DNA from: Eledone cirrhosa
Taxonomy: Eukaryota
Length of the DNA: 64,000 nt
NCBI GenBank assembly: GCA_964016885.1
Contig: OZ024753.1
Location: 29,388,001 to 29,452,000, forward strand
Reading direction: 5' to 3'
Shown in pieces: positions 5,651 through 60,580 of this stretch. The notes under the pieces were generated by a model. That model saw nothing but the letters and a program-made list of their open reading frames with translations. It made no database searches and was not told the origin of the DNA. Position numbers and translations under genes: made by a program. The stretch's first letter is position 1. The number at the start of each line of letters is the position of its first letter.

Positions 5651-6207
5651 TTGATCTTTGATTGAACAGGGGTATATTCAACCACGTTTGAACTGTTACG
5701 ATATCATCTTTATACAATGTCTAAGATTTTGGTGATTCAATGAAGATTTGGTTGTTATTTCTAGCAGGGAGAGCATTCTCGGTGTTATATTTCTAGAACT
5801 GAGTATGAAAGTGTGGTTTAAGTAAGATAAATAAAGAAGAAATACAAGAGACAATAAACAAATCACAATAAGAGAGGAGAAACGAAAATTCTGAACGAAA
5901 GAAAGAAACAAATGACATTGTTTCCAATATAATAGATGAAATATTTCTATATAATTCCTGCTAGACATTTAAATAGCTATCATACTATGAAATGATGATG
6001 ATGATGATTATCAAGATGCTGATTATCAACACTCCACCATCAACATCACCATTACCATTAAAAACAACAATAATAGCAACAACCATCACAACAACAACAA
6101 AAACAATCTCACTCTCTACCACCAACACCACCAACATCATTACATTCAACAACAACAACAATATCTACCACCAACAATATCACTAACATCATCATCATCA
6201 TTACTTT

Positions 6208-7535
6208 TAACAATAACAGCAAAACCAATCTCTACCACCAACACTACCACCATCATCACCATCATTACATTCAACAATAACAGCAAAACCAATCTCTACC
6301 ACCAACACTACCACCATCATCACCATCATTACATTCAACAATAACAGCAAAACCAATCTCTACCACCAACACTACCACCATCATCACCATCATTACATTC
6401 AACAATAACAGCAAAACCAATCTCTACCACCAACACTACCACCATCATCACCATCATTACATTCAACAATAACAGCAAAACCAATCTCTACCACCAACAC
6501 TACCACCATCATCACCATCATTACATTCAACAATAACAGCAAAACCAATCTCTACCACCAACACTACCACCATCATCACCATCATTACATTCAACAATAA
6601 CAGCAAAACCAATCTCAACCACCAACACTATCACTAACATCACCATCATTACATTCAACAATAACAGCAAAACCAATCTCTACCACCAACACTACCACCA
6701 TCATCACCATCATTACATTCAACAATAACAGCAAAACCAATCTCTACCACCAACACTACCACCATCATCACCATCATTACATTCAACAATAACAGCAAAA
6801 CCAATCTCTACCACCAACACTACCACCATCATCACCATCATTACATTCAACAATAACAGCAAAACCAATCTCTACCACCAACACTACCACCATCATCACC
6901 ATCATTACATTCAACAATAACAGCAAAACCAATCTCTACCACCAACACTACCACCATCATCACCATCATTACATTCAACAATAACAGCAAAACCAATCTC
7001 AACCACCAACACTACCACCATCATCACCATCATTACATTCAACAATAACAGCAAAACCAATCTCTACCACCAACACTACCACCATCATCACCATCATTAC
7101 ATTCAACAATAACAGCAAAACCAATCTCTACCACCAACACTACCACCATCATCACCATCATTACATTCAACAATAACAGCAAAACCAATCTCTACCACCA
7201 ACACTACCACCATCATCACCATCATTACATTCAACAATAACAGCAAAACCAATCTCAACCACCAACACTATCACTAACATCACCATCATTACATTCAACA
7301 ATAACAGCAAAACCAATCTCTACCACCAACACTACCACCATCATCACCATCATTACATTCAACAATAACAGCAAAACCAATCTCTACCACCAACACTACC
7401 ACCATCATCACCATCATTACATTCAACAATAACAGCAAAACCAATCTCTACCACCAACACTACCACCATCATCACCATCATTACATTCAACAATAACAGC
7501 AAAACCAATCTCTACCACCAACACTATCACTAACA
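6208..7535. repeat. 64-bp minisatellite, ~21 copies
   Basis: Unit caataacagcaaaaccaatctctaccaccaacactaccaccatcatcaccatcattacattcaa; period 64 checked at 6211, 6275 and 6531. Confidence 0.95.
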
Positions 7536-7971
7536 TCATCGTCATCACTACTTTCAACATTATCTTCATTTTAATCCCTCCTCTCATCACCATAACCATC
7601 ATCATCATAATCATCACCATCATCACTACTATTATCAGTATTGTATTTGTTGTCATTGGCTGATAAGTTCATTAAACGATAGAAACGAAATATTCGCTTT
7701 CTGAAGGCGAATCAAAAAGAAGACAATCTAGATAAATCTAATTAAAACAAGAGAATAATTAAGAAATATGTCTATAGAAATTTACTGTTTGTGTATACTA
7801 TGGAATATTTTAGTTAACATATTAATACTGCAATAGTTTCCCTGATGTTGTTATTACCGATATCATAGGGATAATGATGGCGGTGATTATGGTGGTCACT
7901 AACAGTTTACTAATAATCATTAGAATGACACTGCGTGACCAACTTGAACAAACAAACGTCTGAATTAAATA

Positions 7972-13154: not shown

Positions 13155-13275
13155 AAGAGGTATTTAATTTGTTGGAAGTCCAACAAATATAAATGTTTAT
13201 AACTGATTTAGAGCACTCAACAATTTACTGGAGTAAATATTCAATGATATTAAATAAATGGAAATTCACTGGATA
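13155..13275 (-). mobile_element. PLE-type pLTR tail fragment (family shared with 50750-50860)
   Basis: The reverse complement tttccatttatttaatat..ttgttgagtgctctaaatcagttataaa aligns by eye with 50753-50820. Confidence 0.55.
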
Positions 13276-13284
13276 GTGAATGAC

Positions 13285-41600: not shown

Positions 41601-43058
41601 CATTCTATCCAACATTCTATCCAACAGTCTATCCAACATTCTATCCAACACTCTATCCAACATTCTATCCAACATTCTATCCAACATTCTATCCAACATT
41701 CTATCCAACATTCTATCCAACAGTCTATCCAACATTCTATCCAACATTCTATCCAACATTCTATCCAACATTCTATCCAACATTCTATCCAACATTCTAT
41801 CCAACATTCTATCCAACATTCTATCCAACATTCTATCCAACATTCTATCCAACATTCTATCCAACATTCTATCCAACAGTCTATCCAACATTCTATCCAA
41901 CATTCTATCCAACATTCTATCCAACATTCTATCCAACATTCTATCCAACATTCTATCCAACATTCTATCCAACATTCTATCCAACATTCTATCCAACATT
42001 CTATCCAACAGTCTATCCAACATTCTATCCAACAGTCTATCCAACATTCTATCCAACATTCTATCCAACATTCTATCCAACATTCTATCCAACATTCTAT
42101 CCAACATTCTATCCAACATTCTATCCAACACTCTATCCAACATTCTATCCAACACTCTATCCAACATTCTATCCAACACTCTATCCAACATTCTATCCAA
42201 CATTCTATCCAACATTCTATCCAACACTCTATCCAACATTCTATCCAACACTCTATCCAACATTCTATCCAACATTCTATCCAACATTCTATCCAACATT
42301 CTATCCAACATTCTATCCAACATTCTATCCAACATTCTATCCAACATTCTATCCAACATTCTATCCAACACTCTATCCAACATTCTATCCAACACTCTAT
42401 CCAACATTCTATCCAACATTCTATCCAACACTCTATCCAACATTCTATCCAACACTCTATCCAACATTCTATCCAACATTCTATCCAACATTCTATCCAA
42501 CATTCTATCCAACATTCTATCCAACATTCTATCCAACATTCTATCCAACATTCTATCCAACATTCTATCCAACACTCTATCCAACATTCTATCCAACATT
42601 CTATCCAACACTCTATCCAACATTCTATCCAACACTCTATCCAACATTCTATCCAACATTCTATCCAACATTCTATCCAACATTCTATCCAACATTCTAT
42701 CCAACATTCTATCCAACATTCTATCCAACATTCTATCCAACATTCTATCCAACATTCTATCCAACACTCTATCCAACATTCTATCCAACACTCTATCCAA
42801 CATTCTATCCAACATTCTATCCAACACTCTATCCAACATTCTATCCAACATTCTATCCAACATTCTATCCAACATTCTATCCAACACTCTATCCAACATT
42901 CTATCCAACAGTCTATCCAACATTCTATCCAACATTCTATCCAACATTCTATCCAACACTCTATCCAACATTCTATCCAACATTCTATCAAACATTCTAT
43001 CCAACATTCTATCAAACATTCTATCCAACATTCTATCCAACATTCTATCCAACATTCT
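29656..43058. repeat. 12-bp satellite (CTATCCAACATT)n, ~1100 sequenced monomers
   Basis: Continuous array with recurrent variants CTATCCAACACT, CTATCCAACAGT and CTATCTGACATT. Confidence 0.99.
29664..29863. other. assembly gap (200 N)
   Basis: Run of N; the true length is unknown. Confidence 1.
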
Positions 43059-46412: not shown

Positions 46413-46446
<34 letters not shown>

Positions 46447-46610
46447 CACACATGTGTGTATATATATATATATATACACATACATATATATATACATATA
46501 TACACATATATATATATACATATATACACATATATATATATACATATATATACGTATATACACATACATATATATATACGTATATATATATATATATATA
46601 TACATATATT

Positions 46611-46669
<59 letters not shown>

Positions 46670-46671
<2 letters not shown>

Positions 46672-46843
46672 CGAAGGAAATGTGGTAAGGAACCAGGTGG
46701 ACCATAACGCACCAAAGTACTCAATACTTGAGGTAGTAGAGTGGGTAATAGGAACCAGTAAGACCCCGACAGCTGAGCTCAAGCCGTTTCGACGGCTAAG
46801 CCGTCGAAACGGCTTGAGCTCAGCTGTCGGGGTCTTACTGGTT

Positions 46844-46847
<4 letters not shown>
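46670..46847. mobile_element. fold-back PLE terminus (family A)
   Basis: Minus-strand tail plus a perfect hairpin taggaaccagtaagaccccgacagctgagctcaagccgtttcgacggct-a-agccgtcgaaacggcttgagctcagctgtcggggtcttactggttccta within (TA)n. Confidence 0.75.
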
Positions 46848-47991
<1,144 letters not shown>

Positions 47992-57377: not shown

Positions 57378-57538
57378 AACGAAGGAAATGTGGTAAGGAA
57401 CCAAGTGGACCATAACGCACCAAAGTACTCAATACTTAGGGTAGTAGAGTGGGTAATAGGAACGAGTAGGACTCCGACGGCTGAGCTCAAGCCGTTTCGA
57501 CGGAATGGCTTGAGCTCAGCCGTCGGGGTCCTACTCAT

Positions 57539-57596
<58 letters not shown>

Positions 57597-57840
57597 CCGT
57601 TGTGGGTCCTGAATCTTTTCATATTACCCACTCTACTACCCCTAAGTATCGAGTACCCTGGTAGGTTATGGTCCACCTGGTATTTTACCACACCCTATCT
57701 GATACATTGATATATACATATATACATTTATATATACATATATACATACATTTATATATTTATATATATACATATATACATACATTTATATATTTATATA
57801 TATATATATATATATACATATATGTATATATATACATACA

Positions 57841-57908
<68 letters not shown>

Positions 57909-58079
57909 CATATATCAGAATAGAAGCGGTAAAAACCAGTTAGACCATTATTCATCAGAGCACTCGATATTTGGGGTAGTAGAGTGGGTAATGTGAAAAA
58001 TTCCGACGGCTGAGCTCAAGCTGTTCGGATCTAGCTGTTGTAACGGCAAGACCTCAGCCGTCGGGGTCCCGAATATTCC

Positions 58080-58080
<1 letters not shown>
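57378..58080. mobile_element. three family-A PLE termini in (TA)n
   Basis: Fold-back copies at 57378-57541 and 57915-58080, and a simple plus-strand copy at 57593-57710. Confidence 0.7.
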
Positions 58081-58113
<33 letters not shown>

Positions 58114-60382: not shown

Positions 60383-60385
<3 letters not shown>

Positions 60386-60580
60386 CAAAGGAATTCTGGT
60401 AAGGAACCAGATGGACCATAACGCACCACAGTACTCAATACTTAGGGTAGTAGAGTGGGAAATAAGAAAAAGTATGACCCCGACGGCAGAGTTCAAGCCG
60501 TATCGACGGCTATTTCTGGACTCCAGAAATAGCCGTCGAAACGGCTTGAGCTCTGCTGTCGGGGTCATACTTTTTCCTAT
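60383..60580. mobile_element. fold-back PLE terminus (family A)
   Basis: Hairpin with apex gacggctatttctgga-c-tccagaaatagccgtc, followed by gaaacggcttgagctctgctgtcgggg. Confidence 0.75.

Follow-up and report, generated by a model that had tools for sequence, protein, structure and literature searches.

The repeat analysed here has its closest described relatives among the Hydra-clade Penelope-like elements (PLEs), which, as described by Craig et al. (2021, PMC8557442), combine a single RT/GIY-YIG ORF and characteristic motifs with a pLTR hammerhead and a (TA)n target, all of which recur in our element. Those elements are, however, generally under 3 kb with a tail of 30–40 nt, whereas we find a 3.5-kb unit with an 80-nt tail, a U3-A8 or C3-A8 core, a very long stem II and copies that are mostly hairpins of 60–200 bp. 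PLEs are also described as leaving inverted, 5′-truncated copies with head-to-head arms and a tail at one end (PMC8557442, Fig. 2; PMC3846280). The present copies share this layout but are reduced to the tip of the pLTR with a fixed inner limit, and our data favour two primings, unlike the self-priming put forward in PMC3846280. The origin of the tandem and inverted structures of PLEs is named as an open question in PMC8557442.

Poseidon PAc, which belongs to another clade and was studied in vitro (Frangieh et al. 2024, PMC11167929), acts on an AT-rich target, of which it cuts and extends both strands. It is modelled as a dimer, its two internal start sites delimit a tail, and it needs ORF-proximal RNA but not ribozyme cleavage. 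Our element appears to share the two tail-bounding starts, the use of both strands and the AT-rich target; here, however, both starts share TAT with the target, and the main text of PMC11167929 does not link its two starts to head-to-head insertions. L1 twin priming (cited in PMC4859970) likewise joins two target-primed cDNAs with small indels, giving an inversion. Non-LTR retrozymes (bioRxiv 10.64898/2026.07.22.740005) resemble our copies in being short repeats that derive from PLEs, are non-coding and contain type I hammerhead sequence, but are described as tandem units with complete ribozymes, whereas the copies here are inverted, hold half a ribozyme and are apparently made anew from autonomous RNA. 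A search of openly accessible article texts found no account of PLE micro-hairpins with a fixed limit.

The window analysed is a 64,000-nt stretch of Eledone cirrhosa contig OZ024753.1 (positions 29,388,001 to 29,452,000). The repeat occurs at all seven places listed by the first-pass annotation (starting at 1845, 17428, 46671, 57379, 57594, 57916 and 60385), and its motif is, as had been proposed, the 3′ half of a type I hammerhead. Five copies (1845, 46671, 57379, 57916 and 60385) are indeed hairpins, albeit asymmetric ones because an 80-nt tail sits on one arm only; of the other two, 17428 is degenerate and 57594 is a lone arm without GAAAC. As reported earlier, the turns differ among copies (they lie approximately 3–17 nt upstream of GAAAC), and no copy in the window has a CTGANGA core plus stem II.

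The copy at 46671–46848 (178 bp) consists of two head-to-head pLTR arms of a Hydra-clade PLE and is 99–100 % identical to a 3,531-bp unit found at another locus (L231). Counting along the sense strand with the G of GAAAC as zero, its long arm (46668–46799, minus strand; G at 46790) runs from −9 to about +122 and comprises the 3′ strand of stem II, GAAA, stem III, GUC, the 3′ strand of stem I and the 80-nt tail. The short arm (46799–46848, plus strand; G at 46806) runs from −7 to +42 and carries the same hammerhead half without the tail; the two arms overlap by 1 nt at the junction (46799). In the short arm, the hammerhead half occupies 46806–46833 (plus strand), with GAAA, a 6-bp stem III, GUC (C at 46828) and a GGGGT stem I strand, and the 5′ core is missing. 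The tail (+43 to +122; 46668–46747, minus strand) would lie between two RT start sites, a concept taken from PMC11167929. Both outer ends of the copy are TAT, common to the target; BLAST places the outer end of the long arm at +125 because the parent unit continues TATCTA. The sequence shows (TA)n tracts on the left (46431–46670) and the right (46846–46911).

Among the remaining places, 1845–1972 is an older-subfamily hairpin with an internal deletion in its long arm, and 57916–58081 is another, with the short arm reaching about −17 and the long arm about −2. Hairpins are also present at 57379–57543 (long arm to −5) and 60385–60580 (arms to −18 and −16). The degenerate copy at 17428–17471 (plus strand) is a short arm with a TA-like flank on its right side only, and the lone long arm at 57594–57705 (plus strand), of an older subfamily, starts near +15 and has (TA)n on both sides.

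The window holds several other repeats. An almost perfect hairpin (16911–17100, about 180 bp) lies in (TA)n and belongs to a different abundant family that also flanks L019, L078, L162 and L314, and complete hammerhead-like cores with a short stem II occur in other repeat families at 16134–16160 (plus strand), 58725–58700 (minus strand) and 17669–17692 (plus strand). Positions 13564–13893, inside a 364-aa frame (13258–14352), gave a weak tblastn match to a PLE RT core (E value 1e-4). Tandem arrays comprise a 13-kb array of a 12-bp unit adjoining a 200-N gap (29864–43058) and 22 copies of a 64-bp unit (6148–7559).

A 34-nt piece of the long arm returned 21,064 exact matches in the 3.0-Gb genome (a count that takes in long copies and misses diverged ones), compared with none for the reversed pattern, so the repeat is not a chance match; we put the family at about twenty thousand copies. 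The trail to its parent ran from one copy to a GIY-YIG C-terminus and on to tandem arrays of the 3,531-bp unit, whose units are up to 100 % identical to each other. The unit arrayed in L231 encodes a 717-aa RT/GIY-YIG ORF, bearing out the earlier prediction of a linked PLE ORF, and the repeat is the pLTR of a young Hydra-clade PLE. The ORF carries YRDD and VIY...AYIG and thus the RT plus C-terminal GIY-YIG of EN+ PLEs; it has 2,214 full-length relatives, and part of its protein-atlas neighbours are annotated with GIY-YIG and RVT_1, while scans of Pfam, NCBIfam and PDB returned no match for the protein. The structural features of PLEs are likewise present, with tandem units in L231 and, in 18/19 head-to-head loci, one tailed and one untailed arm.

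The Hydra clade is defined by an RWK-like motif, DKT in place of DKG, a CxCX5C linker, the lack of a CCHH pair, and CxxC and CxH around conserved E and N (PMC8557442). Correspondingly, we found LRWRT (RWR), SDKTG (DKT) and CNCPDRSIC (the CxCX5C linker), a single C between VIY and YIG, so that the GIY-YIG core lacks the CCHH cysteine pair, and, close to the C-terminus, CxxC and CxH (CNLCSEE and NKKDELVTACKH). Moreover, 93 of 100 tails adjoin (TA)n. On these sequence motifs, the parent is placed in the Hydra clade of C-terminal EN+ PLEs. Placement in Neptune or Nematis was rejected, as these have a CX2-5CxxC linker and CCHH, whereas our protein has CxCX5C and no cysteine pair in the GIY-YIG core. 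Two unusual arrangements of the element were also noted: at least 50 tandem copies of a 55-bp piece of the ORF at the 5′ end of an array (L263:171–2979), and a tail-to-tail palindrome (L178:186–583), the opposite of the usual arrangement.

The parent pLTR contains a type I hammerhead with a U3-A8 core, as reported in Cercyon PLEs, and a long stem II, and is predicted to adopt the core and three stems that define this ribozyme type. The minimum free energy fold of the L231 region gives a three-way junction (z 0.44, so that its stability alone is unremarkable), whereas in the predicted fold of L082 a competing hairpin over GAAA wins. In an alignment of pLTR hammerheads, 89 % of cells are paired, with double changes at 3-8 and at three stem II pairs, the latter all from one divergent copy. 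Rfam returned no hammerhead family match in the window or in L231, L087 and L311.

The complete core is absent from 7/7 window copies and from 88/100 sampled long arms, in agreement with the claim that the micro-copies lack the 5′ part of the hammerhead, and the predicted upstream part (CCCC, core and stem II) was found in longer copies. A search for CTGANGA within 30 nt of GAAAC gave 20 matches, all junction accidents or joins to other repeats; it missed native copies because their stem II is too long and most cores read TTGANAA. With a longer gap, 97 matches were obtained, 10 of which we judged native by eye (ACCCC, core and long stem II), and a relaxed core pattern matched 5,077 times in the genome. 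The first 100 of these all have A8, with U3 in approximately 77 and C3 in approximately 23, suggesting that a subfamily with a probably dead ribozyme has spread well. C3-A8 mismatch cores occur, for example, in L202, L214 and L225 among the first 100 listed.

Insertions range from 60 bp to more than 3.5 kb per arm and consist of two head-to-head arms in (TA)n. For the long end of this range, we examined 19 loci with two cores on opposite strands. Eighteen of these combine an arm ending at +42 with one ending at +121–125 (the remaining locus has +42 and +92), while the inner ends are independent and often very unequal (e.g. −154/−2598 and −2691/−461). As the same two outer ends recur at all sizes, the micro-hairpins are the short end of one architecture. 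An unbiased sample was taken as the first 100 tail matches on contig C1 (first 27 Mb), chosen by the tail alone; these are near-exact matches from young subfamilies, and L120/L121 and two L177 rows represent one insertion each. Here, 68 of 76 short arms have their outer end at +41/42. Of the 176 arms measured, 107 stop within −23 to −12 and 55 fall short of that interval, two stop between −50 and −24 and 12 run past −50. This pattern defines a sharp inner limit, which falls at −22 on the A of TTCAT within hammerhead loop II.

Within the 75 hairpins of this sample, the arm that extends further is the long one in 27 and the short one in 28, and in 20 neither leads by more than 1 nt. Their junctions are highly varied (69 distinct), with overlaps of 1–6 nt in 30, blunt joins in 16 and inserts in 29; some of these inserts are scoring artefacts of point mutations, and the true ones include copies of nearby sequence and A/T runs. 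The apices thus vary from copy to copy, which speaks against a single ancestral MITE, as had been foreseen. Some of the variation at the centre may be due to later deletion between direct repeats (e.g. L140, L172 and L274). An apparently inherited ACTT/AATT mismatch between arms arose from selecting on the query junction and was absent from the unbiased sample. Three scored subfamily markers match between the two arms in 42/47 scorable copies (shuffles: mean 12.9, maximum 23), with five pairs discordant; this concordance fits a single RNA or RNAs of the same age, and also self-copying.

Several observations bear on what sets the −22 limit. Micro arms have micro partners in 75/78 cases and long arms have long partners (past −50) in 8/8 resolved cases, so that partners past −50 are found for long arms but for only 3/78 micro arms (Fisher P=2e-8, computed for 7/7). 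None of ten arms that cross a second pLTR stops at its −22, which excludes a fold blocking every pass. In L177, three arms and units all have their 5′ ends at −21. Together, these findings point to a template end, and the limit is a property of the template. L177 itself (148–874) joins a short arm to 257-bp units (−21 to +235) in tandem, whose junctions are identical, and is unique in the genome; the idea that a short RNA spanning −21 to +235 is common was discarded, as its two matches fall at one locus.

A second PLE-like family (family B; L303–L332, 2,439 matches) has two outer ends in (TA)n, as in the first (family A), and its own limit. Of 30 family B arms, some of which are two arms of one insertion, 15 stop within −119 to −125, clustering on the A of a TTCAT motif; this motif sits in a predicted stem, 122 nt upstream of the core. 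Family B micro-copies keep a whole, intact minimal hammerhead. Family B and several family A subfamilies have an upstream CCAAT motif, and we take the TTCAT at the limit to resemble an initiator element. By eye, approximately eight arms among 50 loci have a non-native G before A(−22), compared with six that have the native C; a targeted search returned approximately 70 native-type and 30 cap-type matches, and the opposite arm accounts for many of these, so that a cap-derived G is at most suggested. Untemplated G has been reported as a sign of cap copying in L1 and SVA, and PLE promoters lie in the pLTR, where transcription starts in Penelope and Chlamys-3 (PMC8557442, PMC2377424). We regard −22 as a likely transcription start site in the pLTR. 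Arms of families A and B are joined directly head-to-head in L038, L042 and L077, found through a biased search that gives no frequency. Elsewhere (L031, L034, L037 and L043), the partner of a family A arm is a hairpin of different sequence, in some cases from another hammerhead-bearing repeat.

We consider it probable that the micro-hairpins are the shortest insertions of a Hydra-clade PLE, formed by dual priming and end joining on an RNA with a fixed 5′ end, probably the pLTR start site. The element protein would cut both strands of the (TA)n tract, and two RTs would prime from both target ends, one at +122 and one at +42 in the pLTR RNA, each cDNA running out at the RNA 5′ end at −22. Because an mRNA beginning at −22 has the RT start sites just behind its 5′ end, these cDNAs would be only about 145 and 65 nt long, reminiscent of retroviral strong-stop DNA; they would then be trimmed by 0–20 nt or more and joined head-to-head by microhomology end joining. 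Since 0/10 full-length copies end at −22 of the upstream pLTR, a second class of template must be assumed, and long insertions would derive from multimeric or circular RNAs without an end at −22. The start would fall in loop II, so that micro-copies carry only the 3′ half of the ribozyme, which on the best model is halved as a bystander. In L1 twin priming the second priming site is variable, whereas both sites are fixed here. More broadly, PLEs may use symmetric two-RT integration, in which mRNA would yield mostly strong-stop micro-hairpins and long copies would need multimeric or circular RNA, although we rate this wider claim a little below even.

Dual priming and end joining could also operate if the −22 limit arose through cleavage of the RNA or through a block by bound protein on the RNA copy being primed. 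Such a limit would accommodate the 0/10 whole-unit arms that stop at −22 of the upstream pLTR and the position of the family A limit, where the apical stem II loop ends on its 3′ side, and the A/T runs and L177 jumps show only a template end; we nevertheless regard it as unlikely, given that the TTCAT context is common to two unrelated families (in a loop in one and a stem in the other), that CCAAT lies upstream in family B and several family A subfamilies and that some arms have a non-native G before A(−22). Self-priming, proposed earlier for PLE palindromes (PMC3846280), would have the cDNA from the tail site reach the RNA end, fold back on chance microhomology and copy to +42, with deletions varying the centre. 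It predicts that the long arm always extends furthest, whereas the short arm does so in 28/75 hairpins and in kilobase pairs, and it sits poorly with +42 ends that occur without a partner hairpin or close long arrays (L270), as well as with the A/B joins and the five discordant pairs. The 42/47 agreement of arm markers and the short overlaps at many junctions are what it would lead one to expect, but overall this route appears improbable.

It is more doubtful still that a few hairpin masters amplify non-autonomously, in a MITE- or SINE-like manner, with the centre eroding later. The 69 distinct junctions in 75 copies speak against it, as do identical junctions in different subfamilies (L102, L106 and L142), templated inserts and A/T runs that indicate joining at insertion, and arm subfamily markers that follow the autonomous copies; these outweigh an AAATTT centre in 13/50 near-full hairpins listed and the recurrence of the 46671 junction in approximately nine of the best 30 loci, which were selected for it. 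A MITE proper was rejected on the unequal ends (+42 vs +122), the variable centres and a partner that is an RT element and not a DNA transposase. A non-LTR retrozyme was likewise set aside, since the copies are inverted with half a ribozyme and the sole short tandem, L177, lacks a core and is unique.

Least probable of all, to the point of being barely tenable, is the model of the first-pass annotation, in which the nascent cDNA is repeatedly primed by snap-back at hammerhead stem II. Turns do fall along the 3′ stem II strand, as far as the apical loop, and a few centres (L080 and L147) contain loop-like letters. Priming of this kind would, however, keep the native loop II between the arms, yet the exact product pattern of the lower helix (a single pattern covering the main young subfamilies) has no match in the genome, and both arms come close to the limit at 1,795 loci, of which the first 50 listed include a single one with native sequence past −24. 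The 5′ strand of stem II is hardly copied (2/176 arms end at −50 to −24), and the untailed arm extends further as often as the tailed one (28 vs 27 of 75), which fold-back of a tailed cDNA cannot produce. The strong asymmetry of long pairs and the joins of family A arms to family B arms also count against it. Family B, finally, has an equally sharp boundary 122 nt from its own ribozyme. Stem II priming as a general route is therefore largely refuted, and the earlier interpretation as a whole is partly supported.

The micro-hairpins are real, and as a by-product of an element of known type they are very abundant. For annotation, this carries a warning, as hairpins embedded in TA tracts resemble MITEs or miRNA precursors and yet are retroelement stubs. 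About twenty thousand natural insertions of a young family amount to a large-sample test, and they favour two primings and end joining over self-priming. Dual priming on an RNA with a fixed 5′ end also makes predictions at the nucleotide level, namely RT starts at +42 and +122 and an RNA 5′ end at −22. If the wider claim of symmetric two-RT integration is true, the inverted ends of PLEs would be explained without self-priming, and the genome would record the start site and both RT starts of each PLE family in thousands of independent events.
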